From Bdellovibrionota bacterium (GTDB taxonomy: Bacteria > Bdellovibrionota_C > UBA2361), in NCBI GenBank assembly GCA_044352465.1, contig JBILDU010000065.1, positions 1 through 17,725 on the forward strand: 17,725 bases of DNA. Direction: 5' to 3'. Made by a program: the position numbers and the translations under genes. Every line of letters begins with the position of its first letter. Positions within the stretch are counted from its first letter, which is position 1. Below the pieces are notes generated by a model, which worked only from the letters and a program-made list of their open reading frames with translations, was not told where the DNA came from and did not search any database. Positions 1-17,725 of the stretch are shown here, piece after piece.

Positions 1-71
1 TTTCTCCCCCGCCGGAGATTGTGCGGGCGGAGTAAGGGCCCCCCGAAAAAGCCCGCGGTGTGTCTGCTGTA

Positions 72-1439: not shown

Positions 1440-1457
1440 CGCGCCTTTTCCCTCACG

Positions 1458-2705: not shown

Positions 2706-2785
2706 CGAAATTACTCCTCTAAAGAAACTGTCTCTCTAGACTCACATCGGATGGGCGCGTCGATCAAGGCAGCACCTCGATATTT

Positions 2786-2831
2786 TGTCGCGGCACCGAC
2801 ATTTCTAGACTTATTTGTCTCATTTCGGACA
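2786..2831. promoter_or_regulatory. Tandem palindromic operator candidates, TGTC-N8-GACA x2
   Basis: Box 1 at 2786-2801 is TGTCgcggcaccGACA; box 2 at 2816-2831 is TGTCtcatttcgGACA. Both are preceded by TTT and followed by T, start 30 bp apart, and sit between the divergent arg transcription units. Confidence 0.65.
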
Positions 2832-2835
2832 TAAT
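2806..2835 (+). promoter_or_regulatory. Putative sigma70 promoter for the regulator-DUF1611-argCDFB operon
   Basis: -35 TAGACT (2806-2811), 18-bp spacer, -10 CATAAT (2830-2835). Box 2 fills the spacer and overlaps the -10. Confidence 0.5.
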
Positions 2836-2894
2836 GTTTATTCAGCCGGTTGCCCTGCCCAGCCGGTGTGGCATCTTTGATTAATGGAGCGCCT

Positions 2895-3533
2895 ATGTCG
2901 AGCATGATGGCTATCACTCAACGCTTTATCTCAGAGCACCCGAGCATTAAGGATTGTCTCCGGCGGGGCCTCGTGAACTATTCAGCGCTTGCGCGCCTTA
3001 TCTGTGAGACTCGTGGAGTCGATAAGTTTGAGGCCGTCCTCATCGCTCTGCGCCGCCAGCATACCCTGATAAAAAACCAACTACCGCAGGAGAAGAGGAT
3101 TATCACCCTTCTCAAGCGTGCCAAGATTCGACTCCGAAACAAAATGATGGTCGCGATCGTCGAGAAGCCGTCCGACTTCGAGCGGGTATACGAGATTCAA
3201 AAAAGGATCAAGAAAGATCGCGGCGACTTTCATCTCATCGAAGGAGAGGAGGTGATCACGATAATCTCCAACTCCGACTATGTCTCTGACGTCAAAGATA
3301 CCTTTCGGGGAAAGGTAAAGAAGATCACGGGGGACCTCGCCCAGCTCACCATGATCTTCGATGAGAAGATCGAAACAACTCCGGGGGTCGTCTCTTTTAT
3401 CTACGGGCTCCTCGCCGACAATTCTATCAACGTCTGGGAGGAGATGAGCTGCTGGACCGATTTTATGGTGATTATTGAGCAAAAAGACGCCGCTCGCGCG
3501 ATGCGAGTCTTAAGCCTCGAGGAAGAGGCTTAG
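2895..3533 (+). CDS. ACT-domain protein with an N-terminal HTH-like segment; putative amino-acid-sensing transcription regulator
   Basis: ATG at 2895 has GGAG upstream, so the ORF-track start at 2850 is probably too long; 212 aa. N-terminal helical segment EHPSIKDCLRRGLVNYSALARLI; C-terminal aspartokinase-type ACT signature TPGVVSFIYGLLADNSINVWEEMSCWTDFMVII. Confidence 0.75.
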   Translation: MSSMMAITQRFISEHPSIKDCLRRGLVNYSALARLICETRGVDKFEAVLIALRRQHTLIKNQLPQEKRIITLLKRAKIRLRNKMMVAIVEKPSDFERVYEIQKRIKKDRGDFHLIEGEEVITIISNSDYVSDVKDTFRGKVKKITGDLAQLTMIFDEKIETTPGVVSFIYGLLADNSINVWEEMSCWTDFMVIIEQKDAARAMRVLSLEEEA

Positions 3534-3565
3534 AGTCACTCTGATTATCTTGAGGGTTCGAAACG

Positions 3566-4615
3566 ATGAATAAGTTACAGCTCGATAAGATCGCTTCCTC
3601 GACCAGGAATTCAAACCTTCAACGTGAGGTGACGGTCACCGACGACATCGTGTCGAAGGAGGGTTACATTATCGCGGTGCGGGCGCTGACGGAGAAGAGC
3701 ATTTACAACACCGTCGAGCTGACCCCCGGCCGCATGAGTCGAATCTGTCAAGGCGATGTGATTGCCGGGGTGCTCGGCGCCCGCAATGCGCTCAAGGGCT
3801 ACAGCGGTGTGGTTCCGGAATCGCTTCACGTGGGGGACGTGCTCCAGATCTTGAACCTCGGTGCCGTTATTGGTCGCTGTACGAGCGACAACCCCGAGCT
3901 CGGCAGACCGATCGACGTCGAGGTCTTGGGTGCCGTGCTTTATTTCCCGTCTTTTCAGCACCGCATCGGGAAGCAAGCGAGCATTCATTCGGGGCCGGTC
4001 CACCCGACTGATACGCTGACCCACGCAGCGCCGCTGGTCATCGTCTCAGGGACCTGCATGAGCGCCGGAAAGACCCGCGCCGCATGCGAGATCGTGAAGC
4101 AACTCGCCCACTCGGGTAAAAAAGTTGCGGCCGCCAAGCTCTCCGGCATCAGTCTTCGGCGCGACACCCTCGAGATGCTTGATTTCGGCGCCACCGCTAT
4201 CTACGACTTCACCGACGCTGGCATCGTCTGCACGACCCCTCGCAACGTGGTGCAAGCAGCGAAAGGAATCGTTACGGCCCTCACGGCGCTGAACCCTGAC
4301 TGCATCGTCCTCGAACTCGGGGATGGGATTATGGGTGAGTACGGGGTGATGAATCTCCTCTCCGATAAGCAACTGATGGCGCATGTGAGGGCCCATGTTC
4401 TCTCAGCGAACGATCAGGTAGGCGCATGGGGAGCGGTGCAGTTTCTGGAGGGGAAATGCCCGCCGATCGATATCATCTGCGGACCGGCGACCGATAATCT
4501 GGTGGGCAAGCGCTTTATCAACGACAAGCTCGGCCGCTGCGCTTTGAACGCCATCAAGGACTCGGCAGCTCTCGGCGAAGCGATCGCGGCAAAACTTTTT
4601 CCTGGGGAACTATGA
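3566..4615 (+). CDS. DUF1611/DgcN-like P-loop protein, function unknown (candidate glutamate N-acetyltransferase)
   Basis: 349 aa with a beta-rich N-domain, deviant P-loop VIVSGTCMSAGKT, AAAKLSG, DFTDAG and Walker-B-like IVLELGDG. Its stop overlaps the argC start (ATGA, 4612-4615). CDS is solid; family is recalled from motifs; function is inferred. Confidence 0.7.
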   Translation: MNKLQLDKIASSTRNSNLQREVTVTDDIVSKEGYIIAVRALTEKSIYNTVELTPGRMSRICQGDVIAGVLGARNALKGYSGVVPESLHVGDVLQILNLGAVIGRCTSDNPELGRPIDVEVLGAVLYFPSFQHRIGKQASIHSGPVHPTDTLTHAAPLVIVSGTCMSAGKTRAACEIVKQLAHSGKKVAAAKLSGISLRRDTLEMLDFGATAIYDFTDAGIVCTTPRNVVQAAKGIVTALTALNPDCIVLELGDGIMGEYGVMNLLSDKQLMAHVRAHVLSANDQVGAWGAVQFLEGKCPPIDIICGPATDNLVGKRFINDKLGRCALNAIKDSAALGEAIAAKLFPGEL

Positions 4616-5622
4616 ACGTTGGGATCATCGGCGCATCGGGGTACGTGGGCTTAGAGCTTCTCCGGCTCTTAGCACTTCATCCCCATTTTAAGGTCACGTG
4701 GGTCACCTCACGTGAGCACCAGGGAAAAGCGGTGAGCTCGGTCCACACAGCGCTCCGCGGCGTCTATGACATCCCCTTCGCCGATTGCAGCACGCTGCCC
4801 CCGAATCTTGATATCGTCTTTCTGGCGGTGCCTCACGGCGAATCGATGCGCATCGCGGCCGAATTACGGGCGCAAGCGCCTCAGCTCAAGATTATCGACC
4901 TGGGCTCCGATTTTCGGTTAGACGCCGCAACCTACGAGGCGACATACCACCATCCCCACACCGCTCCAGCGCTGCTTGAAACAGCCGTCTACGGCACTCC
5001 GGAGATCTGCCCCGAAAGGATCGCCCAAAGCACTCTCGTAGCCAATCCAGGTTGTTTCGCCCACTGCATCATCTTAGCAACGGCGCCCCTGGCAAGGGCC
5101 AGGCTCATCGACGGGCGGATCAACATCGCGGCGGTGACAGGTTCCTCAGGTAGCGGTGCTCAAGCCACGCCAAGGACCCATCATCCCGAGAGAAACGAGT
5201 CGTTGAGCGCCTACCAGGTGCTGAAGCATCGCCACGTCCCAGAGATCGAGACGACCCTATCTCAGTGGGAGAGGCCGGTCGCCATCGATTTTGTCCCGAT
5301 CTCCGGGCCGCTCTCGCGGGGTATCTTTGCGACCTCGTTTGTTCCCCTCACCGATCGCACAGCTGATATCGAGTCGTGCTACGCCGAATTTGCCGAGATG
5401 AACCCGTTTATCCGGATCCGCACGGAGACACCTCGCTCACTCGAGGTGCGGGGCTCTAACTTCGTCGATATCTCCGTGCATCGCTCGGGCAACACCGCGG
5501 TTATCGTGAGTACACTTGATAACCTCGTCAAAGGAGCCGGCGGTAACGCGATTCAATCCGCCAATCTCATGAGTGGACTCCCCCCAACAACGGGACTTCT
5601 CTCCCCACCCCTTTTCCCGTAA
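4612..5622 (+). CDS. argC: N-acetyl-gamma-glutamyl-phosphate reductase
   Basis: GASGYVG nucleotide-binding loop, catalytic ANPGC, SSGSG, HRHVPE and DNLVKGAGGNAIQ. Confidence 0.95.
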   Translation: MNVGIIGASGYVGLELLRLLALHPHFKVTWVTSREHQGKAVSSVHTALRGVYDIPFADCSTLPPNLDIVFLAVPHGESMRIAAELRAQAPQLKIIDLGSDFRLDAATYEATYHHPHTAPALLETAVYGTPEICPERIAQSTLVANPGCFAHCIILATAPLARARLIDGRINIAAVTGSSGSGAQATPRTHHPERNESLSAYQVLKHRHVPEIETTLSQWERPVAIDFVPISGPLSRGIFATSFVPLTDRTADIESCYAEFAEMNPFIRIRTETPRSLEVRGSNFVDISVHRSGNTAVIVSTLDNLVKGAGGNAIQSANLMSGLPPTTGLLSPPLFP

Positions 5623-5633
5623 CGGAGCGTTTC

Positions 5634-6827
5634 ATGGAACCAACCTTCAGCGACATCAAGACAATCGAGGATGCCTATCAACTGAAGACCTATTCGAAAT
5701 TTCCACTCGCGATCGAACGGGGTGTGGGCGCCTATGTCTTTGACTCAGCGGGTAAGCGCTATCTCGATTTTTATGGAGGCCACTGTGTCACCGTCACCGG
5801 GCACTGCCATCCCCACATCGTCGGGGCGATAAAGAATCAGGCGGAGAAACTGATCTTTTACTCGAACATCGTCTATAACCAAACCCGCGCCACCGCCGCC
5901 AAGGCGCTCGTCGATTTCGCTGCCAATGGCATGTCGCAGGTCTTTTTCTGTAACTCTGGAGCGGAAGCGAACGAAACTGCGATCAAAGCGGCGCGTCGGC
6001 ACACGGGGAGATCCACTGTCATCAGTATGATCCACGGCTTCCACGGGCGCACGTACGGGGCGATGAGCATCACCGGCTTTCCGAAATATCGGATCTTTCC
6101 CCCGATGCTCCCCGCTACCGTGCACGCCGAGTTCGGCTCGATCGAGGCCATCGAAGCGATCGTATCTCGAGAGAACAGCGATGTCGCAGCGATTATTCTC
6201 GAGCCGGTGCAAAGCATGGCCGGGGTAAAGATGGCGGCGCCGGCGTACTACCGGGATCTCCGCGGGCTCTGCGACAAGAACGGCATCGTCCTTATCTTCG
6301 ACGAGGTCCAAACCGGCTTCGCTCGTACCGGTGCACCGTTCTTCGGTGATCATGTCGGTGTCACCCCGGACCTCATCACCTGCGCCAAGGGGATTGCGAG
6401 CGGAGTGCCCATGGGTGCGGTGATCTTCTCCCCTACCATAGCTTCAAAGATCGGTCTCAGCGAACACGGTGCCACCTTCGGCGGCTCCCCGATCGCATGC
6501 GCCGCTGCCACGGCAAGCCTTGAGGTAATTATCAACGAGCGTCTCGCCTCTCGAGCTAAAGAGCTTGGGGCTTATCTCGCTTGCTCGATTCAGGAGCTGA
6601 AGCTACCCCACCTTATCGAGGTGCGGGGGATCGGGCTTCTGCTTGGGCTCGCATTTGACTGCGAAGCGAAGAAACTGATCCCTGCTCTCCTCGAGGAGGG
6701 GGTCATCATCGGCTCCTCGGAGGACCCCAACGTGCTCCGTCTCATCCCCCCACTCACCATCTCTCAAGCTCACTGCGATGAGTTTTTAACCGCTCTTGTC
6801 CGCGCGAGTGAGAGGGCTTTTGCCTAA
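5634..6827 (+). CDS. argD: Acetylornithine aminotransferase (class III PLP-dependent)
   Basis: FFCNSGAEANE, FHGRT, IFDEVQTGFARTG, the PLP lysine in AKG, and HGATFGGSP; arg operon context. Confidence 0.92.
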   Translation: MEPTFSDIKTIEDAYQLKTYSKFPLAIERGVGAYVFDSAGKRYLDFYGGHCVTVTGHCHPHIVGAIKNQAEKLIFYSNIVYNQTRATAAKALVDFAANGMSQVFFCNSGAEANETAIKAARRHTGRSTVISMIHGFHGRTYGAMSITGFPKYRIFPPMLPATVHAEFGSIEAIEAIVSRENSDVAAIILEPVQSMAGVKMAAPAYYRDLRGLCDKNGIVLIFDEVQTGFARTGAPFFGDHVGVTPDLITCAKGIASGVPMGAVIFSPTIASKIGLSEHGATFGGSPIACAAATASLEVIINERLASRAKELGAYLACSIQELKLPHLIEVRGIGLLLGLAFDCEAKKLIPALLEEGVIIGSSEDPNVLRLIPPLTISQAHCDEFLTALVRASERAFA

Positions 6828-6835
6828 GGAATGAT

Positions 6836-7780
6836 ATGTTTGAACGAAGCTTAACCCGGGTAACAGATCTGACGCCCCTCGATATCCAGCGAGTGCTCAC
6901 GAAGGCCTTTAGCTTTAAGCGAAAACACGAGGAAGGGGTACGGCGCGAAAATGTCCTCGATGGGAAGGTCGTCGCCCTCCTCTTCGAGAAACCCTCGCTG
7001 CGAACCAAGGTCGCTTTTGAGGTCGCGACCCACTATCTCGGGGGCCAGCCGATATTCCTGTCGAGCTCCCAGATCCTCGCGAGCGGTGGTAACGAGCGGG
7101 GTCGCGAGTCGATCCCCGATATCGCGCGTAATTTAGAGCGTTTTTGCGATCTCATCGTCGCGCGGGTGTATCATCACGAGGTGATCGATGAGATCGCTCA
7201 AGCCGTCCGTACGCCGGTTATCAATGCGCTCTGCGACAAACATCACCCCACCCAGGCGCTGGCCGACCTGATGGCGATCCAATCGGTGGTGAAAAAGGAT
7301 CCGCGCGATATCTCCGTCGCTTTTGTCGGCGACGGAAATAACGTCGCGACCTCCCTCATGCAGATCTGCCTGATAAGCGGAATCAACTTTCGTATCGCGA
7401 CACCGGGGGGCTATGAAATCCCCTTGGTCGAGCATAAGGTGGGGGAATATCTCGCCCGGGGTAGTGGTGCAACGTACGCCGCCGTTCACGACCCTGCGGA
7501 AGCAGTACGAGGTGCGGATGTCGTTTACACCGATACCTTTACCTCGATGGGACAAGAAGGGGAAAAGGCGGCACGGAGCGCCGCTTTCGTGGGTTATCAG
7601 GTGAACGCGGATCTCATGGGGCTTGCATCGCGGGAAGCCGCCTTTATGCACTGCCTGCCCGCTCATCGGGGAGAGGAGGTTACAGACGAGGTGATGGATT
7701 CTCCTCAGTCGATCGTCTTCGATCAGGCGGAGTGTCGACTCCATGTGGCCAAAGCATTGATTGCATCGTATCTATCGTAG
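6836..7780 (+). CDS. argF: Ornithine carbamoyltransferase
   Basis: FEKPSLRT carbamoyl-phosphate motif, HPTQALAD, GDGNNV, DTFTSMGQE ornithine loop and HCLPAHRGEE. Confidence 0.95.
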   Translation: MFERSLTRVTDLTPLDIQRVLTKAFSFKRKHEEGVRRENVLDGKVVALLFEKPSLRTKVAFEVATHYLGGQPIFLSSSQILASGGNERGRESIPDIARNLERFCDLIVARVYHHEVIDEIAQAVRTPVINALCDKHHPTQALADLMAIQSVVKKDPRDISVAFVGDGNNVATSLMQICLISGINFRIATPGGYEIPLVEHKVGEYLARGSGATYAAVHDPAEAVRGADVVYTDTFTSMGQEGEKAARSAAFVGYQVNADLMGLASREAAFMHCLPAHRGEEVTDEVMDSPQSIVFDQAECRLHVAKALIASYLS

Positions 7781-7797
7781 ATCAAAGAGGGGGACTG

Positions 7798-8706
7798 ATG
7801 GACCGGATGAAAGCCTTAACCGAGATCTTACCGTACGTTCGAGAGTTCGTTGGGCGGACATTTGTCGTAAAGATCGGAGGAGAGATCTGCTCCGGGAACT
7901 ATCTTGCCGGGATCGCCGAACAGGTCAGCCTCCTTCATCACATGGGTATTAAAGTCGTGCTCGTCCACGGCGGTGGCCCCCAGATGGACGAACTTCTCGG
8001 TGAGCTCGGGCTTGAACCTAAAAAAGTGGCTGGTCGTCGTATCACCGACACCCCGACGCTACGGGCGGCAAAGATGGCGTTCAAGGGGGTGCTCAATACC
8101 GATATCGTCGCAGCATTAAAGACCCACGGCGCGCTCGCGGTCGGACTCTCGGGCGCTGACGGTAGCATCATCATCGCCGAAAAGCGCCCGCCGACAAGGG
8201 GAAAGGCGGAGTCGGGCGAAATCGTTACCATCGACTACGGGCACGTCGGTGAAATCGTGGTCGTGAATCCGAGCCTCATACAGACACTCTTAGGGCAAAA
8301 CTATATTCCGGTGGTCTGCTCCCTCGGAATCGGCGCAGACGGTGCTCTTTACAATATCAACGCTGACACCATCGCCGCTGAGCTCGCTCGAGCAGTATCA
8401 GCGGCGAAACTTGTTCTCATGACGAACGTCCCAGGACTTCTACGTGACATCAAAGACCCAACGAGCCTCATCTCCTACACCGACATCGCATCGCTCTCAA
8501 ATATGGTCAAAGACGGAGTCATTAAAGATGGCATGCTCCCCAAGATCGAGGCGTGCATATCAGCGGTGCAGCGCGGTGTCTCACGCACCCATATCGTCGA
8601 CGGCACCCGCCAGAACTCCCTTCTGCTTGAGCTTTTCTCTAATGAGGGCTGCGGCACGATGATCGTTGATACCGACGAGAAGCGGCACTATGAAGCCTCA
8701 AGCTGA
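7798..8706 (+). CDS. argB: Acetylglutamate kinase
   Basis: ATG at 7798 with AGAGGGGG upstream (the track start at 7732 overlaps argF). Motifs VVKIGG, VHGGGPQ, GRRITD, NINADTIA, MTNVPG, GMLPKI and ELFSNEGCGT. Confidence 0.95.
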   Translation: MDRMKALTEILPYVREFVGRTFVVKIGGEICSGNYLAGIAEQVSLLHHMGIKVVLVHGGGPQMDELLGELGLEPKKVAGRRITDTPTLRAAKMAFKGVLNTDIVAALKTHGALAVGLSGADGSIIIAEKRPPTRGKAESGEIVTIDYGHVGEIVVVNPSLIQTLLGQNYIPVVCSLGIGADGALYNINADTIAAELARAVSAAKLVLMTNVPGLLRDIKDPTSLISYTDIASLSNMVKDGVIKDGMLPKIEACISAVQRGVSRTHIVDGTRQNSLLLELFSNEGCGTMIVDTDEKRHYEASS

Positions 8707-8730
8707 TCTCCCCGGGCGGCTTCGCAGCAA

Positions 8731-9630
8731 CTACGGCTGACGATAGAGCCGGTACATCGTCAGCATCCTCTTTTTCTGTTGGCTCGTGAAGCTACGGGTG
8801 CAGAGATCATCGGTGTAGCTCATAAAATTTCGAATCGGATCAAGCCCGGGCTGCTGCGGGCACGAATCGGTCGCCCGACAGGAAAAATGAGGCACCCGTT
8901 CCGCCGGGGTATCGGCGACGCGGTCCCCCTTGCCACGACACCCGTTGTTCGTCGATGAAATGCGTGAATCCGGGCGGGGGGGCTCATGGGTGTGCAACAA
9001 GCCAAGCCAATGCCCGACCTCGTGAACCAAAGTTTTTCCCTTATTGTATCGCGACTGAGAAGCTCCCGGTAAGGTCGTGTGGTGCAGATACACCCCGTCA
9101 TAGAGCGGATACTCTCGATAGTCGCTGGGGGGCGAGGCGACCCCCAAAACGTCCGACGGCTCCTCAATATACGGTTCGTGAACGTATACGTTTAAGGTTC
9201 GGGCATCGCCGACCCGGAGCGCCTGGACCATCGCCTCTGTCTCTGTTGAATCCAGCTGAAGCTCGAACCACGCATCGTTTACCACCGTATTGATAGCCGA
9301 CGTGGAAAACCTAAAATTACCCCGATAAGCGCTATTTAAAAGACTGACCTGCGCTGCAATTTTCCCCGAGGTCGCCTCGTTACCCCCATCCGACGACTGA
9401 ATGATGTGAAAAACGACCGGAATATTGATCGGTGCTGCCGCGCTCACCGCTGGCGAAAACGTCTCAGCCAGAGCGACACGCGCCTCCATCATAGCCATCT
9501 CCCGGGGGCTTCGAGGCTCAAAACCGCATCGACGTCCCCCACGCTGCCGCCCAGAGGGCTCCGCGACAACAACGGTGGAGATAAAAATACTTACCAGAGA
9601 AATCAGGAACAATTTGGATCTAATCGCCAT
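8731..9630 (-). CDS. Secreted zinc metalloprotease, M43 (pappalysin/ulilysin-like metzincin)
   Basis: Signal-peptide-like N-terminus, RRCG putative cysteine switch, IPVVFHII, HEVGHWLGLLHT zinc motif, VADTP and Met-turn NFMSYTDD. Confidence 0.9.
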   Translation of the reverse strand: MAIRSKLFLISLVSIFISTVVVAEPSGRQRGGRRCGFEPRSPREMAMMEARVALAETFSPAVSAAAPINIPVVFHIIQSSDGGNEATSGKIAAQVSLLNSAYRGNFRFSTSAINTVVNDAWFELQLDSTETEAMVQALRVGDARTLNVYVHEPYIEEPSDVLGVASPPSDYREYPLYDGVYLHHTTLPGASQSRYNKGKTLVHEVGHWLGLLHTHEPPRPDSRISSTNNGCRGKGDRVADTPAERVPHFSCRATDSCPQQPGLDPIRNFMSYTDDLCTRSFTSQQKKRMLTMYRLYRQP

Positions 9631-10392
9631 TCCGGGATTTTACCCCGAGAAGAGTCACCCTACCAAGAGGATTATCGACCCCTGGTCCCAAAAATACGTC
9701 GTATCCAACCCTGTACACCGGCAGAATCTTAGCTCCGTTGAGGAAGGATGCCGAACTTTCACAGGAGCGCGCCCGGCCCCCCCCCTGGGCCACAGCGTGA
9801 GAGATGAATGGCTCTTATTATCTTTTGAACAGCTTACTCAGAACTCTACACTCGAGTCTTGAATACGCTACTCATCGTTCTAGGCCATTTTCTATGGTCT
9901 CTACCTCAACAATTCCGCATCTGACCCCATTGACTTACATGACCTCCGTATCGTTTACCAACAACAGAGACACCCCATGACCCGGCCTCCAGCGTGTGCT
10001 CGTTAGGAATGCTCCCGGTGGAGACCTCCTCACCGAGTAACCGATGAACTGTTATGAAAAATCCCAACAACCGCCTTCTCACCTTCATGACGGGGCTTCT
10101 CTTTGGACATCCAGCCCTCGCCGGATCGTGCGACTCATGCAATCCGTCGCTCAATAACGAGTCCGCGCGTCAACGAGCAGGGTTGGGGAAAAATGAACTC
10201 CTGTCCTTTGTTCAGGATTGCAAACGTTCATTCGCACCTGGAATAGCGCGAACAGAAGCGCAATCCCAAACTGAAAACTAGGGGAATGAACTTGTGGCAC
10301 CAGGCACTATTCGGCTCAGGGCCGTCGTGGCTCCGCACAACGTCGCTCCGATATCCGTCGGCAAAGCCATCTTCCTGAGGCATAAATAGCGC

Positions 10393-11163
10393 TCACTCTT
10401 GATAGCGACTGAGGAGCGCCCGATTGAAGCAAAATAGATTCTCTCCCCGGTGAACGAAATCGAATTCACGGGCTGACATCGCCCTTAAAAACGGCTTCGA
10501 CGTCCCCGCAAACGGAAACATCCAATCGTGCAGTTCGATAACGATGAGAGGAAACTCGTCGATCCAGTCGGTCGGCTCCTGAAAAAGATCAGCCTCCGCT
10601 CCCTCGATGTCGATCTTAAAAATAAATGGGGTGGTGTTTTCGCCTATGATCCGACTGAGTATCGCCCGGGGCGAGATCGTTTCGATCGTCGGTGCGGAAG
10701 GTTCGTCGCTCAAAGCGGTCAGCTCCCCGGGGTAAACTCGCGTTGTCCGGAACGCCCAATCCGAGAAACCCGGGTCCTGGATTGTAGCTCGCCCTTCCTC
10801 ACTCCCGATAGCGCCGTAAAAGTTAATCTTGTGCGACAGCACCGCGGTGTTCGCCTCGAGAAGTTCAAAATTATCCCGCTGCGGCTCGACACTGAAAATA
10901 AACGCCTCAGGATAGGCGAGCCAAAACCAAAGCGGACTCGCCCCGATGTTGGCCCCCGCATCGATAATCAGCGGACGCTTCGAGCTACTCACTATCGTGC
11001 GATAGTGCTCGATCAAGCATCTCCCCTGCGGCCACTGGTCCACCCGGTAATCGTTTTGCTTGAAAATCTGCGTGATGACACCGTTGTCACCGACCGAATC
11101 GGTGCGAAACTGCAAAGGGAACTCCCGGTCACCAAGCGTCAGTGTAATGGTCGATACATTCAT
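10393..11163 (-). CDS. FkbM-family SAM-dependent methyltransferase
   Basis: IIDAGANIG, VEP, FKIDIEGAE and IVIELHD motifs; 256 aa. Confidence 0.9.
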   Translation of the reverse strand: MNVSTITLTLGDREFPLQFRTDSVGDNGVITQIFKQNDYRVDQWPQGRCLIEHYRTIVSSSKRPLIIDAGANIGASPLWFWLAYPEAFIFSVEPQRDNFELLEANTAVLSHKINFYGAIGSEEGRATIQDPGFSDWAFRTTRVYPGELTALSDEPSAPTIETISPRAILSRIIGENTTPFIFKIDIEGAEADLFQEPTDWIDEFPLIVIELHDWMFPFAGTSKPFLRAMSAREFDFVHRGENLFCFNRALLSRYQE

Positions 11164-11416
11164 CGCTAACTCAGCAAAAGACTACTCTTGATAACGATAC
11201 GATAATATAAATCCTTCACGAGCGGCACACCCGATCGAGGAGGAGATTTCTGACCCCCGACGCGGCCTCTTCTCGCGCCGAGTGACCGACCACCGCTGCT
11301 CCGATGAGTCGCGAGACCGCGACGACCGCTTGATGATTCAGAGAAGAGAACTTCCCCGCACATGAATCAGGTGCTTCCGTCTTGACTAGGGGAAGCCACG
11401 GTGGTACCTACGAGAG

Positions 11417-11470
11417 ATGACGAACATCGTCCTCAACCACTTCCGCTCGTTCCACCATCGCCGCGCCTAG
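11417..11470 (+). CDS. Putative leader peptide MTNIVLNHFRSFHHRRA (17 aa)
   Basis: ATG at 11417 to TAG at 11470 with clustered His/Arg codons before the stop. Preceded by TTGACT (11382-11387), N17, then an imperfect -10 TACCTA with extended TG; followed by a pyrimidine-rich tract. Confidence 0.55.
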   Translation: MTNIVLNHFRSFHHRRA

Positions 11471-11587
11471 GCGATACAATCTTTTTCCGTTTTTCATCCT
11501 AGTCATTTTCATTTTCGCGTTTTTCACTTTCGCTCCTGGCGTTGGTGTCTTTGATACACGCCTTGAGGACGAATTCAGGCGCGCCAG
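11457..11587 (+). promoter_or_regulatory. Putative attenuator: hairpin over the leader stop codon, U/C-rich tract and alternative hairpins
   Basis: ATCGCC (11457-62) pairs with GGCGAT (11470-75). About six TTT(T)C units lie in 11481-11531. Hairpin GGCGT-tg-GTGTC-ttt-GATAC-ACGCC at 11538-11562 competes with CTGGCG (11536-41)/CGCCAG (11582-87). Confidence 0.45.
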
Positions 11588-11608
11588 CCGCGCTGTAGGG
11601 ACCTCTGT

Positions 11609-13552
11609 ATGACGAATTACGACCCCGGCTTGGATCGCCCCGGCGATCGAGCCGACTTATCCCAATTATCAATTCCCCGTAATCGCTCTCCGCTGCCGCC
11701 GGCTAAGCGAGCGCTGACGTTTGAGATCAACCCCGAGTGTAAATACTTTGTCTCATGCGTAGACACCGAGCGAGCGCTCGAGCCGTGGATCAAGAGTATT
11801 GGGGAAAAACTTGGCAAAAGACCTGAGGAGATACTCCCCACTTTGAAGCCGCTCTACGAGGATTTCGTCGGAAAGGTCATGGGGCAAATCAACGGCTGTG
11901 GCTTCCAAGTGATCTTGCTGCCGTCACGTATCCTTGAGACCAGGCTTCGCGATAATACGAACGGTCTTTTCACGGTTTCTTTGAACGCGGGGGATGCATG
12001 GTGCGATTTCCGGCTCGAACTCTCTCGTCGATTCGACAGCGCGGGTAAAGAGCTGCTTGGGATGACCGCACGCCCGGGGGCTCCAACCATCGAGGAGCAG
12101 CTCACTGCACTGCGCGCGCAGCTCGAGCGCCGCGGAATAAAGAGCATATGCCTCGTCGATGACCACGCTTTCTCCTGCCGCACTCTCGAAAGTGCGGTCG
12201 AGGCGCTCGAGTCGATAGGCATTGGGGTAAGCCAGATCGCCGTTCTCTCTCAGGTCGGAGATTCGGCTGTGCTAGCTCGCCGAGGAATTCCGATTATTCC
12301 GGCATGTCGCTTCGTTGGCCCAGAGGGGGCGTCGGTCCTCGACTGCGTTGAGTTAGTTGAGGCGCGGTATTTCCTCCTCGGGAGTGCTGGCTGTGTGGTC
12401 GACCTCGGAGGTGGAGTGAAAGGCCGCGCGCCGTACCTCCTGCCCTTCGCCGATCCGACGAACCGAGCGAGTATTCCACCGGAGCGCGCAGTAGCATTCT
12501 CAATCACGGCTCTGCGTTACAACGCCGAATTCTTTGCTGCTATCGAACGTGAATTTGGGGTGAGGTTAACAGCAGCTGATGGGCGTGCCGATGCGACTAC
12601 GGTTCTCGAGCGGTATGGTATCGAAGCCGCTCAGCCGCTCCAAGAAGCCGCTGAGAGTGTCGCCAAACGCCTCGAAGCAGGTCTCCGTGAAGGAGGTCCG
12701 TGGTCCAACGCCTCTCCCCGCAGGGCAGAGGAATTGGGGCAGGCCCTGCGGGCGGCCAACCTTCCACAGCGGTGTCTCTTTCTTGATGTGAACGGAACCC
12801 TGATCGAGCGCGGACAGTCGGGGATCGCTGCCGGGGCGGAGGAGCCCTTAAAGGCTGAGATCCGACGGCTTCAAGGGCAAGGGGTCGCGGTGGGGTTGTG
12901 TTCCGATAGTCCCGGGATTCCCCTTCAGAGGCTCGCTCAGCAACTCGGTATGCGGGGTCCGATTCTGGCGGAGAATGGGAACTTACTCCTCACCGACCGG
13001 GATTCCGTGGTGCTCACTCCCCTACCAAATCGTGCGGAGCTCGAAACGCAAATTCGAAGCATCGCCCGCGCAAACGGGATCACCGAGGAGCCCGCGATGG
13101 AGGCGGTCGATTTTGGTGGCTCACCACCCGATCTGCGTGGTCGCTTCGCCTTTGGGCGAGGCCGACAGACCTCGGTGGCGTGCTTTGGAGACCCCAGATT
13201 CATCGCCCGACTTGAGTTAGTAAGCCGTGAGCAGGGCTGGGCTCAGACGTTCGGCGTGAGCCTCGATTGCAATCCCAACTGGGGACCGTACGGGGTCGCG
13301 ATAGCGCACCCCGGGAGCGCCGTGGTCGCGGGCAAGGGCATGGCCCTCGATCTTTTGACTCGCTATGGTATCGAGCGATCGTGGATCATCGGTGACGGTG
13401 CTGCCGATTGTATCGAGGGCAATAGCAAGGTGAGAAGTTTTCTCGTGGGGCAGCTCGGCTCCCCGCTTGGAGCACGGGCTGCGCGAGCCACCCCACAGGC
13501 GGGACTTGCAGCGGTAATCGAGCTTATGAATGAGGTCAGCAAGGAGGCGTAG
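11609..13552 (+). CDS. Fusion protein: type I phosphoribosyltransferase-like domain plus Cof-type HAD hydrolase domain
   Basis: 647 aa. PRPP-loop-like ICLVDDHAFSCRTL near nt 12146-12187. HAD motif I FLDVNGTL near nt 12780, motif II GLCSDS, ILAENG, Lys in GKG and motif IV IIGDGAAD. Confidence 0.7.
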   Translation: MTNYDPGLDRPGDRADLSQLSIPRNRSPLPPAKRALTFEINPECKYFVSCVDTERALEPWIKSIGEKLGKRPEEILPTLKPLYEDFVGKVMGQINGCGFQVILLPSRILETRLRDNTNGLFTVSLNAGDAWCDFRLELSRRFDSAGKELLGMTARPGAPTIEEQLTALRAQLERRGIKSICLVDDHAFSCRTLESAVEALESIGIGVSQIAVLSQVGDSAVLARRGIPIIPACRFVGPEGASVLDCVELVEARYFLLGSAGCVVDLGGGVKGRAPYLLPFADPTNRASIPPERAVAFSITALRYNAEFFAAIEREFGVRLTAADGRADATTVLERYGIEAAQPLQEAAESVAKRLEAGLREGGPWSNASPRRAEELGQALRAANLPQRCLFLDVNGTLIERGQSGIAAGAEEPLKAEIRRLQGQGVAVGLCSDSPGIPLQRLAQQLGMRGPILAENGNLLLTDRDSVVLTPLPNRAELETQIRSIARANGITEEPAMEAVDFGGSPPDLRGRFAFGRGRQTSVACFGDPRFIARLELVSREQGWAQTFGVSLDCNPNWGPYGVAIAHPGSAVVAGKGMALDLLTRYGIERSWIIGDGAADCIEGNSKVRSFLVGQLGSPLGARAARATPQAGLAAVIELMNEVSKEA

Positions 13553-13558
13553 TCAAAT

Positions 13559-14518
13559 ATGATAGACCAGAGCAACCCCACAATCGTGATCGACACCGAT
13601 CCAGGCGTCGATGACATTCTGGCGATTTTCTTTGCCCTTGGATCGAAGGCTGTGCAAGTGGCTGGATGCACCACCTGCATGGGCAATGCCCCCCTCGATA
13701 TCGTCACTCGAAACCTCGCCTTCGCACTCGGAGCTGTAGGTCATGAATCGGTGCCGATTTACACCGGAGCCGCCGCGCCGTCGAATCAAGCCCCGGTTTG
13801 GGCATCGACACACGGAGTTCAGGGACTCGGCCGAATTGTGCCTGACCCTTTTCCGATACCGACTGCCGGGAGTGCGCGTGATAAGTTCACTCGTGGGGCC
13901 GCGCTCCCCTATCAACTCGTGGCGCTCGCCCCTTTAACGAATATCGCCCAGGCGCTGAGCACAGACCCGCGGTGTTTCGATCGATGCAGCCGACTCATCA
14001 TCCTCGGTGGAGCTATCACTGCCCCGGGAAATAAAAGCGCTGTAGCTGAGTTCAACTTTTTCTCCGACCCGGAGGCAGCGGATGCGGTGCTCGCGCAGTG
14101 CCCGTGTCCGATCACACTCATTCCGCTCGACCTGTGCTATACTGCTGTCATTGCTCTCAGCGATCTCGAACGGGTGGAGGACCCAGAGTTTCGTTCCTTC
14201 TTGATGCACCTGTGCGAACCGTACGCCGTGGGGGGCGAACGGGAGGAGGGTATTCCCGGAATAATCCTCTACGATCCGCTCGCTGTCTTTGCGGCGATCG
14301 CACCAGACGCCTTCACCTATACCCCCGCAGCAGTTCGGGTCGACACCGGCCAGAGCCACGCCCGCGGGATGAGTGTAGCGGATCGCCGCCTTCGCTCAAC
14401 GACCCCGCCAAACGTCACCGTTGCAACCGCGGTGGATTTGGCTGCTTTCAGAGCCTCGTTCTTCGCAGCCCTGAATCGCCTGCGCTATGCCCCGCGCTAT
14501 CGTTTCCGCGTCACCTAG
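13559..14518 (+). CDS. Nucleoside hydrolase (IU-NH/Rih family)
   Basis: DTDPGVDD Ca/ribose motif, HGVQGLG, ALAPLTNIA, GNKSAVAEFNFFSDPEAA and LYDPLAV. SD AAGGAGG lies in the end of the upstream gene; 6-nt gap. Confidence 0.92.
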   Translation: MIDQSNPTIVIDTDPGVDDILAIFFALGSKAVQVAGCTTCMGNAPLDIVTRNLAFALGAVGHESVPIYTGAAAPSNQAPVWASTHGVQGLGRIVPDPFPIPTAGSARDKFTRGAALPYQLVALAPLTNIAQALSTDPRCFDRCSRLIILGGAITAPGNKSAVAEFNFFSDPEAADAVLAQCPCPITLIPLDLCYTAVIALSDLERVEDPEFRSFLMHLCEPYAVGGEREEGIPGIILYDPLAVFAAIAPDAFTYTPAAVRVDTGQSHARGMSVADRRLRSTTPPNVTVATAVDLAAFRASFFAALNRLRYAPRYRFRVT

Positions 14519-14685
14519 CTCGCAGCGATTTATGTGAATGACGAGCAGCCCCCCGGTGTTCCCCCCTCGGCAACGCTGGCCCACTTCGGTTGATAACACT
14601 ACCGCAACGATGGAAGAGGCGCACGCTTGGGTATCCAGCCTAATCACCTACGTAGTTAATAATATTGGACTTATCCGTAGTAAAT

Positions 14686-14715
14686 TTGACAGACCAGATC
14701 AGACCAGACTATACT
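14686..14715 (+). promoter_or_regulatory. sigma70 promoter of vapBC with a direct-repeat operator in the spacer
   Basis: TTGACA (14686-91), 18 bp, TATACT (14710-15); CAGACCAGA repeated at 14690-98 and 14700-08. Confidence 0.75.
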
Positions 14716-14722
14716 TATGAAC

Positions 14723-14959
14723 ATGATCATCAAGAACATCTCCGAAGCGAAAGCCGAGCTCTCAGCACTCCTTGAGCAAGTTCTGAAGGGAGAGGAGGTG
14801 ATTATCGGGAAGGCCGGTGTCCCGATCGCGCGGATAGTCCGCTACAGCGGACTTGAACGCGCTCGAACTCCGGGCGCTCTTCGGGGAAAGATAACGATCG
14901 CACCCGATTTCGATGAACTTCCAGACGATATTGCAGAGTCGCTTGGAGTAAAGCCGTGA
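14723..14959 (+). CDS. vapB: Phd/YefM-family antitoxin (VapB-type)
   Basis: NISEAKAELSALLEQVLKGEEVIIGKAGVPIARIV and C-terminal GALRGKITIAPDFDELP. ATG 14723 is preferred over 14717 because 14717 is only 2 nt from the -10 box. Confidence 0.88.
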   Translation: MIIKNISEAKAELSALLEQVLKGEEVIIGKAGVPIARIVRYSGLERARTPGALRGKITIAPDFDELPDDIAESLGVKP

Positions 14960-15330
14960 GATATCTCCTCGATACGCACATCCTCCTCTGGTGGCTCGCT
15001 GATTCCTCCGACCTCACAAAAAGCGCGCGGGAGACGATATCGAAACGGGAAAACTTCGTGATGGTGAGTGCCGCCTCGATCTGGGAGATTCGCATCAAGC
15101 AAGGGATCGGAAAGATTCAGCTTCCCCCCGATTTCGAAGTGATCGTGGCGGAGGCTCCGTTTGAGCATCTCTCTATCACCTCGCGTCACGCTCACGCGGT
15201 CTTTGAACTCCCGCTTCACCACCGCGACCCGTTTGACCGACTCCTTATCGCACAAGCTCAGTGCGAAAACTTAACGCTTCTTACCCACGATCGAAACCTT
15301 GCGGTGTACGATGTGGGAGTCGCGTTTTAA
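14956..15330 (+). CDS. vapC: PIN-domain ribonuclease toxin
   Basis: GTG start overlapping the antitoxin stop (GTGA); LLDTHILLW, SAASIWEI, HRDPFDRLLIAQA and LLTHD. Confidence 0.93.
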   Translation: MRYLLDTHILLWWLADSSDLTKSARETISKRENFVMVSAASIWEIRIKQGIGKIQLPPDFEVIVAEAPFEHLSITSRHAHAVFELPLHHRDPFDRLLIAQAQCENLTLLTHDRNLAVYDVGVAF

Positions 15331-15394
15331 TGGGAGGTAGAATCTATTTTCGATCCGCCCGACAGGAGCAGCACCCGTCTCGAAATCGGCGGTC

Positions 15395-15580
15395 TCAGTA
15401 AAACTTACGGTCGATGAGCCCCGCATCGCGGATCGCCCTCTCCCATATGGAGCGTACAAACCGCTCCCGCTCTGCAGCCTTACGGCGCTGCTCTGCCAGA
15501 TACTCCGGCATCTTCTCCAAAAGCTCACAGAGAGAGCGAATCTTCGGGTCGCTTATCATGTTTAGCTCATCGTCGCTCAT
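15395..15580 (-). CDS. Small charged helical protein, likely partner of the upstream ATPase
   Basis: ATG at 15580 with GGAG upstream; 61 aa MSDDELNMISDPKIRSLCELLEKMPEYLAEQRRKAAERERF...; overlaps the 3' end of the extended ATPase frame. Confidence 0.6.
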   Translation of the reverse strand: MSDDELNMISDPKIRSLCELLEKMPEYLAEQRRKAAERERFVRSIWERAIRDAGLIDRKFY

Positions 15581-16145
15581 ATCCACTCCAGAGAGCTGTG
15601 TTGAGTATCGTCTCGCCTTTCCCCCGCTCTTTGTACGCGACCAATTTTGCAGAGGCGCTCGAGTTATCGAAAAAGTACCAATAGTCCGATAGATGCCGTT
15701 AACTCGTCATGAAGTTCTTAATACTCCGGTCGAACCGCCTCCGAAGAGTGTCCTCGGGAATATCATGCCCACCTTCCAGAACCCTTCGTCGCACTCTCTC
15801 AATAGATATCTCAGCAGAGCTGACAGCTATGTAGCAAATAGTCGTGTCATAACCGGTATCTTGAGCTCGTTTCAGTACTGTTTTCCAAGATGTCCCCGAC
15901 ATCGTGGATTCAAAAGCGATCGATTCCCGACGGTTAAGACTGACGTGAATTTCTTCAAGAAGTACGCGCCCGGCAGTTATGTCAGAGCCAACTCTAGACT
16001 GAGCTGCCATGCCCTTCGCAATGATATCGGCGTTAAGGTAGGTGTATATATTCTTATTCAGCATCAAAAATTCAGCGACCGTGGACTTCCCCGCACCATT
16101 TGGCCCCGCCACGATAACGAAATTTTGCCTGCTATGGTCGTTCAC
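15567..16145 (-). pseudogene. Zeta-toxin-like/AAA (COG4185-type) P-loop ATPase with an in-frame nonsense codon
   Basis: IVAGPNGAGKST, YLNADIIA, AFESTMSG and RVRRRVLEGGHDIPE. TAA at 15701-15699 is followed in frame by RHLSDYWYFFDNSSASAKLVAYKERGKGETILNTALWSGYERR, ending at TGA 15569-15567. Confidence 0.8.
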
Positions 16146-16593
16146 TGCGGCACCTTATCAGATTCCTCGCCGATCGGAAAAGACAACCCTCCTCCTGGTC
16201 TCCCCTCCCCCTGGTCCGTCCCAACCTATCTCTCCAGGTCGGGAAAGTCTCAATCTTCAATCCAACTGCCGGATATAATGCTACTTTATCAACGGCTTTT
16301 CTTTAACTAGGTTAAAGTAACCGGCCTAAAAGCAAACCCAGGAAGTATTTATCGATAGCAGCACAGGAACTGGGGCTACCACGAATAGCAGCCCGGGCGG
16401 CGGAGCGGAGGCGCTCGAAGGCACTCAAGAGAGAAATCGTCGCCCTGACCATGGAACAGGCATGAAAAACCCCCTTGAAAAGGGCATGAGCTGAAGTCCC
16501 CCCATTCACGACCCGCACCACTTAATGATGGGCAATCGGCTCCATCCGGCCTACAATAAAAAGGAGCTCTCGCACTCGCTCAACGGAAGGGAC

Positions 16594-17725
16594 ATGGTTC
16601 GATTCCTCGCTTTAGCTGTCGGTGTATGCGCGGCTATTCTCTCGCCCCTCCCCCTTTCTTCCCTTAACGCCTCGGCTCAAGACATCTCAAGTTTTCGGCT
16701 CGGTACTAATCTGAACGAGGTGAACGACTACTCACCGCAGCTTCCGTTCCGTGACCTATTTCTCTTCTCTCGCGAGTGGATTACCCAGTGCCGTGTCGGA
16801 ATCGACCCGGGATGTGTGATTGGGAACGCCTTCGACACCGGCGAGGGAGGCTCTCTCGACCTCGACGACAACGGCTGGGTACGCTCACTGCCGGCGCCGG
16901 CGAGCCCCGTCATCTTCACTCAAGCGGCAACGGTGTGGGACTTACCGGCGGAGTTCCCCTCCGGCACCTTTATCGTCCTCTACGAGGGCAGCGGCTCAAT
17001 CGAGTATGCACTCGGAGCAACCAAAGATGTCGGCGCATCGGCACCCGGTCGCGACGTCGTGAGTGTCAACGTCGCTAACGGGCCTATCGTCCTTCGGATC
17101 GCCGCGACAAACCCCGCGAACTACATCCGCAATATCCGCTTCGTGCGGGCAAGCGATGAGAGCGGACTCGCCACCAATCGGTTCTCCGCAGCCTTCCTCT
17201 CCCAGCTCGAGCCCTATCAGGTCTTACGTTTCATGGATTGGATGCGGACCAATAATTCAGCCGTATCCGCGTGGAGTGAACGCGCAAAGCCCGCTGACTC
17301 CCGATACTCTACTCCACGGGGAGTACCACCGGAGATTATGGTCGAGCTGTCGAATACGACCGGCAAAGCCCCGTGGTTTACCCTTCCCGCCCGGGCAACG
17401 AACGAGTTCGTGGCGAATTTCGCGACGGTCGTGCGTGACAACTTGGCCCCCTCCCTCCCCGTATTTCTTGAGTATTCGAACGAGATATGGAACGGCGCGT
17501 TCTCACAAGGAGAGTTTGTCGAGGCCCAAGGCGTGGCTGAATTTTCGGGCCAACCAGGCAGTGGATACACCAAAAGAATAAACTGGTACGGCAAGCGCTC
17601 AGCTGAAATCTGTAACATCTGGAAAAGCCACTTTGGAGCAAATGCAAATCGGGTCGTTTGTATTATTGCATCGCAGGCGGCCAATACATTTACCGGGGAT
17701 GAGGCGATGCGTTGTCCGCTGTGGA
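16594..17725 (+). CDS. Secreted glycoside-hydrolase-like protein (often annotated as cellulose-binding protein); partial, runs off the window
   Basis: Manually translated open frame from ATG 16594 (GGAAGG upstream) to the window end. Signal peptide MVRFLALAVGVCAAILSPLPLSSLNASAQ, then LGTNLNEVNDYSPQLPFRDLF, LDDNGW, YIRNIR, VLRFMDWMRTN and VFLEYSNEIWN. Confidence 0.8.
   Translation, partial: MVRFLALAVGVCAAILSPLPLSSLNASAQDISSFRLGTNLNEVNDYSPQLPFRDLFLFSREWITQCRVGIDPGCVIGNAFDTGEGGSLDLDDNGWVRSLPAPASPVIFTQAATVWDLPAEFPSGTFIVLYEGSGSIEYALGATKDVGASAPGRDVVSVNVANGPIVLRIAATNPANYIRNIRFVRASDESGLATNRFSAAFLSQLEPYQVLRFMDWMRTNNSAVSAWSERAKPADSRYSTPRGVPPEIMVELSNTTGKAPWFTLPARATNEFVANFATVVRDNLAPSLPVFLEYSNEIWNGAFSQGEFVEAQGVAEFSGQPGSGYTKRINWYGKRSAEICNIWKSHFGANANRVVCIIASQAANTFTGDEAMRCPLW

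Follow-up and report, generated by a model that had tools for sequence, protein, structure and literature searches.

The window analysed here, a 17,725-nucleotide (nt) stretch of a Bdellovibrionota bacterium genome (assembly GCA_044352465.1, contig JBILDU010000065.1, positions 1 to 17,725), carries on its forward strand a two-gene module that is real, conserved, horizontally patchy in its distribution and undescribed. The upstream gene (11609..13552, ATG start) encodes a 647-residue fusion of a phosphoribosyltransferase (PRT)-like N-domain to a C-domain of the HAD-IIB type, and the downstream gene (13559..14518, ATG start) encodes a 319-residue nucleoside hydrolase (NH) of the inosine-uridine (IU) type. 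The Shine-Dalgarno sequence of the hydrolase gene, AAGGAGG (13540..13546), lies within the 3' end of the fusion gene, whose TAG stop codon (13550-13552) is separated by a 6-nt gap from the ATG at 13559. An earlier reading of this DNA, made from the sequence alone (the sequence-only reading), had described two tightly linked genes joined in this way and supplying three activities; the open reading frames (ORFs) and the junction are as it gave them, and the three activities are borne out at the level of fold and family (PRT fold, HAD-IIB fold, IU NH). Prediction of a complex between the fusion and the hydrolase (alignments A1 and A3) scored 0.00 in two runs, which is evidence neither for nor against an association.

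The N-domain (residues 35-367; 11711..12709, + strand) is a divergent type I PRT-fold domain with family-specific extensions. An AlphaFold model of the whole fusion reached a pLDDT of 86.8 with a pTM of only 0.55, so the orientation of its domains is uncertain; modelled alone with 53 stand-alone homologues, the N-domain reached a pLDDT of 95.9 and a pTM of 0.92. When this model was compared with solved structures in a wide VIA-align search, which is independent of Foldseek, PRT-fold proteins accounted for 39 of the first 41 rows (ranks 1-39 and 41; Z 9.9-6.1). The top matches were orotate PRT (OPRT; 3qw4, Z 9.9; 2yzk, 9.6; 2wns, 9.4) and adenine PRT (APRT; 2dy0, 9.1), and further matches included xanthine, uracil and hypoxanthine-guanine PRTs (XPRT, UPRT and HGPRT), the C-domain of phosphoribosyl pyrophosphate (PRPP) synthetase, PurR and PyrR. 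Foldseek returned APRT and OPRT at E 6.8e-4, and a profile of 54 stand-alone N-domain homologues matched OPRT (E 3.8e-5) and APRT (E 9.5e-5) in the PDB, both at the PRPP loop. Two designed repeat proteins that outscored these enzymes in the profile search were disregarded because they matched in many tiny stretches. Both structural comparisons point to the five-stranded α/β core of the PRT fold in the modelled domain.

The predicted PRPP-binding loop, ICLVDDHAFSCRT (residues 180-192; 12146..12184, + strand; family consensus [DE]D-x3-[ST]G-x-[ST]), combines a hydrophobic strand, two acids and an [ST]-G-x-[ST] turn. Its acid D185 is invariant in all 19 aligned sequences, as are R140, R155 and a GRAPYxLPF block, and the loop motif is present in 107 of 168 stored homologues, the remainder having either no N-domain or no match to the regular expression. 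The Pfam family Pribosyltran (PF00156) matches residues 178-214 at 12.4 bits (E 0.1), below its gathering score of 26.3. The PRTase-like assignment of the sequence-only reading is thus upheld by profile, Foldseek and VIA-align, yet the sequence is very remote from known PRTs.

The C-domain (residues 385-647; 12761..13549, + strand) resembles the HAD-IIB enzymes of the Cof and mannosyl-3-phosphoglycerate phosphatase (MPGP) type. In Foldseek searches with the full fusion model, its C-terminal half matched HAD-IIB enzymes with a probability of 1.00 (E 3e-10 to 1.6e-7), among them 4dwo, 1wr8, 1kyt, phosphomannomutases, and trehalose-6-phosphate, sucrose-phosphate and mannosyl-3-phosphoglycerate phosphatases. 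A HAD profile matched 3niw (E 2.2e-5) and YedP (E 6.8e-4) in the PDB, and the NCBIfam MPGP family matched the C-domain at E 2.4e-4. Hydrolase_3 (PF08282) aligned with residues 390-464 at 16.1 bits, short of its gathering score of 20.9, which several homologues pass (for example P0029, with 31.6 bits). The modelled domain has a Rossmannoid HAD core bearing a C2B cap. Motif I, FLDVNGTL (12779..12802, + strand), retains the nucleophile Asp393, and its D393-V-N395-G-T aligns with the DLDGT of 3niw, placing Asn395 at the position of the general acid/base (Asp+2). Motifs II (S432), III (K576) and IV (D600) are present, and D393, N395, S432, D433, K576 and D600 are invariant in the 19-sequence alignment; Asn therefore occupies the Asp+2 position in 19 of 19 sequences. 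Of 71 stored homologues in which motif I can be recognised, 67 have Asn here, two have Asp and one has His, and one match is spurious. With Asn at this position, the HAD domain may be something other than an ordinary nucleotide 5'-phosphatase, and may either act on a substrate with a good leaving group or be a phosphotransferase. A natural Asn at the general-acid site of a HAD enzyme is a mechanistic oddity worth solving on its own account.

The hydrolase is assigned to its family with much greater ease: it matches IU_nuc_hydro (PF01156) at 241.2 bits (E 2.6e-71; gathering score 34.2), and its best solved relatives are the plant nucleoside hydrolase NRH and RihA. It misses every NCBIfam equivalog cut-off (RihC, 161.4 of 382 bits; RihA, 143.1 of 433; UriH, 134.2 of 450). 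The Ca2+-binding motif DxDxxxDD is present as DTDPGVDD (residues 12-19), and the Ca2+ and ribose ligands D14, D18, D19, N43, N158, E164, N166 and D239 are invariant in 19 partner hydrolases. Where group I enzymes have their catalytic His (xHDP), the window hydrolase has Tyr238, within ILYDPLAV (14264..14287, + strand), a stretch in which the Ca2+-binding Asp239 is retained. Across the partner hydrolases this position is His in 14 (mostly from the candidate phyla radiation, CPR), Tyr in four (the clade of the window) and Asn in one (L009).

The two genes travel together. Full-length relatives of the fusion were found at nine loci in the genome collection, and an NH gene adjoins in all eight that have downstream DNA: an IU_nuc_hydro gene follows immediately in seven (L002-L008), an inositol-monophosphatase-family gene lies between the two at L009, and L001 is at a contig edge. 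Metagenomes supplied 24 loci, 19 of them with downstream DNA, and NH is immediately downstream in 17 of these, the exceptions being L033, where a CobC-like histidine phosphatase gene takes its place, and L036; the genome and metagenome counts include near-duplicates (L003/24/25, L004/16/37, L006/17/18 and L002/14). Within the taxonomic order of the window, NH is adjacent in four of five further loci with downstream DNA. Fusion-NH pairs often share 4-nt overlaps. The pairing occurs far more often than by chance; a pairing without conservation, one of the grounds on which the sequence-only reading said that it would fall, is not what is seen. A ribokinase-like PfkB gene stands by the pair at three of the five order loci (L129, L132 and L133) and at the CPR locus L007 (TIGR02152, E 6.5e-47 to 3.6e-69, under the cut-off), and the other neighbouring genes vary. 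Inositol-monophosphatase-family genes (best matches HisN/CysQ, under the cut-off) and genes for 2H phosphoesterases (2'-5' RNA ligase superfamily) recur near the fusion (L131, 139-1616; L132, 4683-7671; L009, 2141-2941). The fusion at L033 (5841-14708), which has no NH gene, stands between a gene for the citrulline utilisation hydrolase CtlX on the opposite strand and genes for the CobC-like histidine phosphatase, pyrB, carA and carB.

The module is sparsely distributed. Matches occur in 10 of 91 genomes, and in 7 of 39 genera, of the window's order; a genome of the same genus as the window, at a completeness of 78%, gave no match. In the CPR, the full-length fusion is present in 3 of 301 Microgenomatia genomes. 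Searches of viral contigs and of phage records found no relative, and plasmids yielded one distant N-domain homologue only. At L023 (4983-11105) the module lies between two large serine recombinase genes, and at L037 (5563-6666) an rve-type integrase gene precedes it; these recombinase- and integrase-flanked copies fit horizontal spread. One full-length homologue (G275:C1:673406-675262) contains a single in-frame TGA, which could reflect a sequencing error, decay to a pseudogene or a recoded stop.

The wider family is large. A word-indexed search gave 20 homologues, most of them fusions of 615-673 residues and all unnamed or annotated as 'hypothetical protein', and an exhaustive profile search of representative proteins gave 1886 at E≤0.001, 1155 at E≤1e-10 and 176 at E≤1e-30. 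These come from CPR bacteria, delta- and gammaproteobacterial metagenome-assembled genomes (MAGs), Actinomycetota and Bacillota, and comprise full fusions, stand-alone N-domains and stand-alone HAD domains. Some carry additional domains: triple fusions of PRT, HAD and APH kinase (~925 residues; P0028, P0029, P0034 and P0035) place a kinase and a phosphatase in a single chain, and PRT+APH (P0054), HAD+APH (P0080) and HAD+NUDIX (P0099) fusions also occur. Two proteins (P0165 and P0167) join a CTP_transf_like domain, scoring best with NadD (TIGR00482; E 6e-17 and 4.6e-14, under the cut-off), to the PRT-like domain. A further protein of 1429 residues (P0169) joins NAD_synthase, 2-oxoglutarate (2OG) oxygenase and PRT-like parts, of which the NAD-synthase parts score above the cut-off for the nadE domain (TIGR00552). 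Another conserved system that uses the PRT-like domain thus combines an NAD(+) synthase-like, a 2OG-Fe(II) oxygenase and a PRT-like protein: on Streptomyces sp. NBC_00158 plasmid NZ_CP108162.1 (L038, 6346-11154) each component has its own gene, next to genes for an MFS transporter and a MarR regulator, and in an Actinomycetes MAG (L010, 3495-7525) two genes encode them.

No model in Pfam, NCBIfam or PADLOC names the fusion, and a full-text literature search, as far as its listings and the openings of abstracts go, returned nothing on it. The sequence-only reading had not recognised the fusion as a described enzyme, and within the same reach of the literature we concur. The family has many members and conserved active-site-like motifs, and neither a name nor an assay.

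A regulatory signal was found upstream of the fusion in the CPR bacteria, tiny groundwater organisms. At the Rfam gathering threshold, the 26 loci searched gave only tRNAs. With an E-value threshold, the T-box riboswitch (RF00230) was matched in 5 of 10 loci, each time immediately 5' of the fusion gene (L024, E 2.5e-6; L016, 3.2e-6; L004, 2.2e-5; L005, 2e-4; L022, 0.03), and six further loci gave no T-box. The CPR matches score 26.9-42.7 bits, short of the gathering score of 93, with model positions 1-219 covered and stem I mostly deleted. The T-box core GGUGGNACC occurs upstream of the fusion in 11 loci, representing seven different CPR leaders, and in each T-box leader it is followed by a terminator of the form CCCGUC...GACGGGAUUUUUU and then by the start AUGAAAGAAC. 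Stem I is ultrashort, and its hairpin loop reads GUCGCGA (four leaders) or (C)CGCA(G) (two leaders), the triplet common to both being CGC, an Arg codon.

The specificity of these leaders can be read from both ends of the tRNA. The CGC specifier matches the anticodon of tRNA-Arg(GCG), and the UGGN segment of the leader covaries with the discriminator base of that tRNA: UGGC leaders occur in G001 and G181, where tRNA-Arg(GCG) has G73, and UGGU leaders at L023 and in G305, where it has A73 (four of four). Among the other tRNAs, tRNA-Ala always has A73 and tRNA-His always C73. An alanine reading of the loop (GCG or GCA) was rejected because the UGGC leaders require G73 and every tRNA-Ala has A73. 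Histidine control was also rejected, since the T-box loops hold CGC and not CAC and the discriminator pairing rules out tRNA-His; His-codon leader peptides, sought in 26 upstream regions, were limited to one HH pair in a mini-ORF of the window leader. The specifier and the discriminator covariation lead us to predict that the CPR operon would be read through when tRNA-Arg(GCG) is uncharged.

The four T-box genomes (G001, G002, G181 and G305) have few T-boxes, only one to three per genome and all with an ultrashort stem I, and the only others precede serS, two TrpB-like genes, trpE and hisG (L137, L138, L139, L141 and L142, in G001, G002 and G181). In these control cases the TrpB-like and trpE loops contain UGG, and the hisG loop is GUCACGA (CAC) with UGGG. 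The specifiers thus sit in small hairpin loops, with a 7-nt form, G-U-NNN-G-A, in the hisG leader and the fusion operon alike.

The window itself is different. Its fusion gene is preceded by a leader or intergenic region of 445 nt (11164..11608, + strand) with no recognised riboswitch: Rfam gave no T-box at E≤1 across the whole window or at E≤10 in 11164-11640, and no other relevant match. The leader has a fold z-score of -1.05, which is not significant, and no sigma-70-like promoter. Control by a leader, as proposed by the sequence-only reading, is seen in the CPR homologues alone, through the Arg-type T-box. A 17-codon mini-ORF (11417..11470, + strand; MTNIVLNHFRSFHHRRA), a speculative leader peptide, ends in ..HHRRA, with CGC CGC as codons 15-16, and a weak terminator-like hairpin of 6 bp followed by a T-run (11457..11475, + strand) overlaps its end. 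Terminator-like sites number two in the leader region, against 0.4 expected from shuffles. The mini-ORF and hairpin are suggestive of attenuation in the window leader, without conservation in the closest homologues, L001 and L002, upstream of which the mini-ORF is missing. An Arg-codon leader peptide as a general feature was rejected, because it is confined, among 17 upstream regions, to the window (..HHRRA) and L021 (..PRRRV). The leader also contains the 9-mer GGTGGTACC (11400-11408), which is the T-box core letter for letter in a region that no T-box model matches, and, 3' of the hairpin (11480-11535), a pyrimidine-rich stretch of repeated TTTTC/TTTTCA units.

An arginine biosynthesis cluster (72-8706) is found 2.9 kb upstream of the module. 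This consists of argH (72-1439) and argG (1458-2705), both on the reverse strand, argC (4612-5622), a gene for an argD-like aminotransferase (5634-6827), argF (6836-7780) and argB (7732-8706). Two ORFs occupy the place where argJ/argA might be expected: one (2850-3533) encodes DUF7523 and ACT domains and has no family name, and the other (3566-4615, 349 residues) has no Pfam or NCBIfam hit. Adjacency to arg genes was seen in none of five further loci of the window's order. Directly 3' of the hydrolase gene are genes for a Phd/YefM antitoxin (14717-14959) and a PIN toxin (14956-15330), which overlap by 4 nt.

The CPR genomes with a T-box, G001, G181, G002 and G305, encode pyrF, canonical PRT genes beside pyrF, a pyrB-like gene and carB, in pyrE-pyrF-pyrB-carB clusters. 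Neither an argG match above the cut-off nor arginine deiminase was found in these four or in G003 (0 of 5 for each), all of them incomplete MAGs in which absence is not proven; the G003 leader could not be read. As far as can be seen, the T-box genomes are those of arginine auxotrophs with their own pyrimidine pathway. Several explanations of the arginine control were rejected on these grounds. Sparing of carbamoyl phosphate does not fit genomes that have carB, pyrB, pyrE and pyrF and no argG, since without argG nothing competes for carbamoyl phosphate; an energy switch based on arginine deiminase would need a deiminase, which none of the five genomes was found to have; and the PRT-like domain is not a missing OPRT, because canonical PRT genes adjoin pyrF. 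For pyridine nucleotides, no match to nicotinate phosphoribosyltransferase (NAPRTase) was found in G000-G004; NadD and NadE are adjacent in G001 and G003, which gave no match to quinolinate phosphoribosyltransferase (QRPTase), G002 has no NadD match, and G000 and G004 have NadC.

We tentatively read the pair as a starvation-linked module for turnover or salvage of a ribonucleotide, riboside or base, which would handle the ribose 5-phosphate or ribose part of a small N-riboside; we put this at somewhat below an even chance. The reading draws on the presence in one polypeptide of a PRPP-type fold and a HAD-IIB domain, on the coupled N-ribohydrolase and the conserved pairing, on the CPR T-box leaders with their specifier, discriminator covariation and control cases, on the recurrent ribokinase-like neighbour, and on the nucleotide-handling fusion partners within the family (APH-type kinase, NUDIX, NadD-like and NadE domains). 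In such a module the HAD domain would take the phosphate off a ribotide to give a riboside, the hydrolase would split the riboside into base and ribose, and the ribokinase would recover the ribose. The PRT-like domain would rejoin the freed base to PRPP, a salvage comparable to that by NH and PRT in purine-auxotrophic protozoa, or it could instead serve as a PRPP- or nucleotide-sensing partner of the phosphatase. In the CPR bacteria the operon would be transcribed only with uncharged tRNA-Arg(GCG), hence a function induced by starvation there. The candidate base could be pyrimidine- or orotate-like, or a pyridine (nicotinate).

Several points weigh against this turnover and salvage reading. 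Three activities on one substrate make a futile cycle, and an ordinary phosphomonoesterase would not be expected to have Asn at Asp+2. The arginine control is explained neither by the want of a salvage PRT nor by a link to carbamoyl phosphate. The remaining T-box targets in the same genomes are genes for the cognate amino acid, which hints at an arginine-specific role that the turnover model does not predict, and the window and its order have no T-box. It is possible, though unlikely, that the module is a new kind of riboswitch-driven starvation device, in which uncharged tRNA (here tRNA-Arg) switches on enzymes that dismantle or re-route a ribotide pool, with the HAD domain, bearing Asn at Asp+2, cleaving a phosphoanhydride or activated phosphate (for example that of PRPP) rather than a plain 5'-ester, or that arginine is freed from an undescribed N-ribosyl conjugate.

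Other readings account for parts of these data. One is arginine-specific scavenging to feed an auxotroph, in which the module would strip ribose (phosphate) either from a compound of the arginine type that is N-ribosylated or from a ribotide with a base that is converted to arginine. The seven CPR leaders with their discriminator covariation, the lack of argG and deiminase matches in the T-box genomes, the cognate targets of all other T-boxes there, the arg cluster near the window copy and the CtlX gene adjoining L033 all favour it. Nevertheless, we consider it decidedly unlikely: we know of no ribosyl-arginine metabolite or pathway of this kind (no exhaustive search was made), arg genes do not adjoin the module elsewhere in the window's order, and no T-box was found in 11 of 16 loci (Rfam, E≤0.5). 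A pyridine-nucleotide cycle, with the PRT-like domain as a nicotinate or nicotinamide PRT, the HAD domain converting nicotinate or nicotinamide mononucleotide (NaMN or NMN) to the riboside and NH splitting that riboside (NaR or NR), seems quite unlikely to us. The PRT-like paralogues that are fused to a NadD-like adenylyltransferase, or fused or adjacent to NadE and a 2OG oxygenase (P0169, L010 and the Streptomyces plasmid), point towards it, as do the HAD+NUDIX fusion and the adjacent NadD and NadE of G001 and G003, in which no NAPRTase or QRPTase was matched. The fusions of the PRT-like domain to NadD-like and NadE domains give some indirect support to the NAD-related riboside suggested by the sequence-only reading. 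Against the cycle, G002 bears the module with no NadD match, and G000 and G004 have NadC; a full fusion in so few Microgenomatia genomes cannot be a general source of NaMN; the NadD- and NadE-fused paralogues are distant (profile E ~1e-35) and perhaps use another base; and the cycle would still be futile, with no tie to an arginine T-box.

In a further reading the PRT-like domain would be non-catalytic, an allosteric sensor of PRPP, a nucleotide or an alarmone that gates the HAD domain in the manner of PurR and PyrR, making the module a regulated nucleotide-degrading device functionally like PpnN. The structural matches include the PRT-fold regulators PurR (1o57, Z 7.0) and PyrR (1w30, Z 6.7) and a ppGpp-bound PRT-fold protein (5vog, Z 8.8), and both the extreme divergence from catalytic PRTs (12.4 bits) and the starvation control in CPR bacteria would be in keeping with sensing. 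We nonetheless regard this, too, as quite improbable, given that the acidic pair, the phosphate-binding loop and the invariant Arg, Asp and Gly-Arg-Ala-Pro-Tyr motifs are kept family-wide, and that stand-alone copies and fusions to NadD- and NadE-like domains suggest a catalytic step. A role in phage defence or conflict by the draining of PRPP or nucleotides, as the sequence-only reading had also entertained, is very improbable. The patchy distribution, the recombinases and integrases beside some copies, and the Phd/PIN pair beside the window copy are what such a system might show; however, no PADLOC-DB family matches the two proteins of the module (P0001 and P0002) or the P0028 triple fusion, no copy was found in phage records or viral contigs and a single distant N-domain homologue on plasmids, no sensor domain is present, and T-box control and recurrent ribokinase-like neighbours also count against it.

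If uncharged tRNA does switch on the dismantling or re-routing of a ribotide pool, the module would form a stringent-response-like link from amino-acid supply to PRPP and nucleotide metabolism in bacteria with minimal regulation. A predicted Arg-sensing T-box over a fusion/NH operon in apparently arginine-auxotrophic, ultra-small bacteria is an unusual target, and offers a handle on how amino-acid supply may be coupled to nucleotide metabolism. The fixed coupling to NH, and the frequent coupling to kinase, NUDIX, NadD-like and NadE domains, mark what would be an undescribed step of ribose-phosphate chemistry.

Compared with type I PRTs (OPRT/PyrE, APRT, XPRT and UPRT; PF00156), the N-domain shares the α/β core, at a VIA-align Z of 8-10, and the PRPP loop with its acidic pair and [ST]G-x-[ST] turn, but it is ~330 residues long instead of ~180. 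Its N- and C-terminal extensions hold invariant family-specific motifs (SR, RPG, DPRDF and GRAPYxLPF), its identity to solved PRTs is 8-16%, hood and base-binding residues cannot be matched in it, and it is joined to a HAD domain. The C-domain has the fold, C2B cap, nucleophile Asp, Ser, Lys and distal Asp of HAD-IIB phosphatases and mutases (Cof, MPGP, sucrose-phosphate and trehalose-phosphate phosphatases and phosphomannomutase), whereas the fusion family has Asn for the general acid/base Asp+2, many of its CPR members have Asn as the first acid of motif IV, and the domain is joined to a PRT fold. The hydrolase has a complete Ca2+/ribose site, as do Escherichia coli RihA and RihC and protozoan IU-NH; it differs from RihA and RihC in scoring under the equivalog cut-offs and, in the window clade, in having Tyr instead of the catalytic His.

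As a system, the module recalls protozoan salvage by IU-NH with HGPRT or APRT, in that NH is genetically tied to a PRT-fold enzyme, with a ribokinase gene as a frequent neighbour; it differs in the additional phosphatase domain borne by the PRT. The three types of activity are also those of the yeast pyridine riboside cycle (Npt1, Isn1/Sdt1 and Urh1), in which Urh1 belongs to the group I IU-NHs and Isn1 and Sdt1 are nucleotidases of the HAD type; the known nicotinate and nicotinamide PRTs have type II folds, in contrast to the type I fold predicted for the N-domain. Finally, the CPR leaders share with T-box riboswitches (RF00230) the T-box sequence, the antiterminator/terminator pair, the specifier triplet and the pairing of UGGN with the discriminator, but their stem I is ultrashort, their specifier lies in a 7-nt hairpin loop, and the target that they precede is no aminoacyl-tRNA synthetase, biosynthesis or transport gene.

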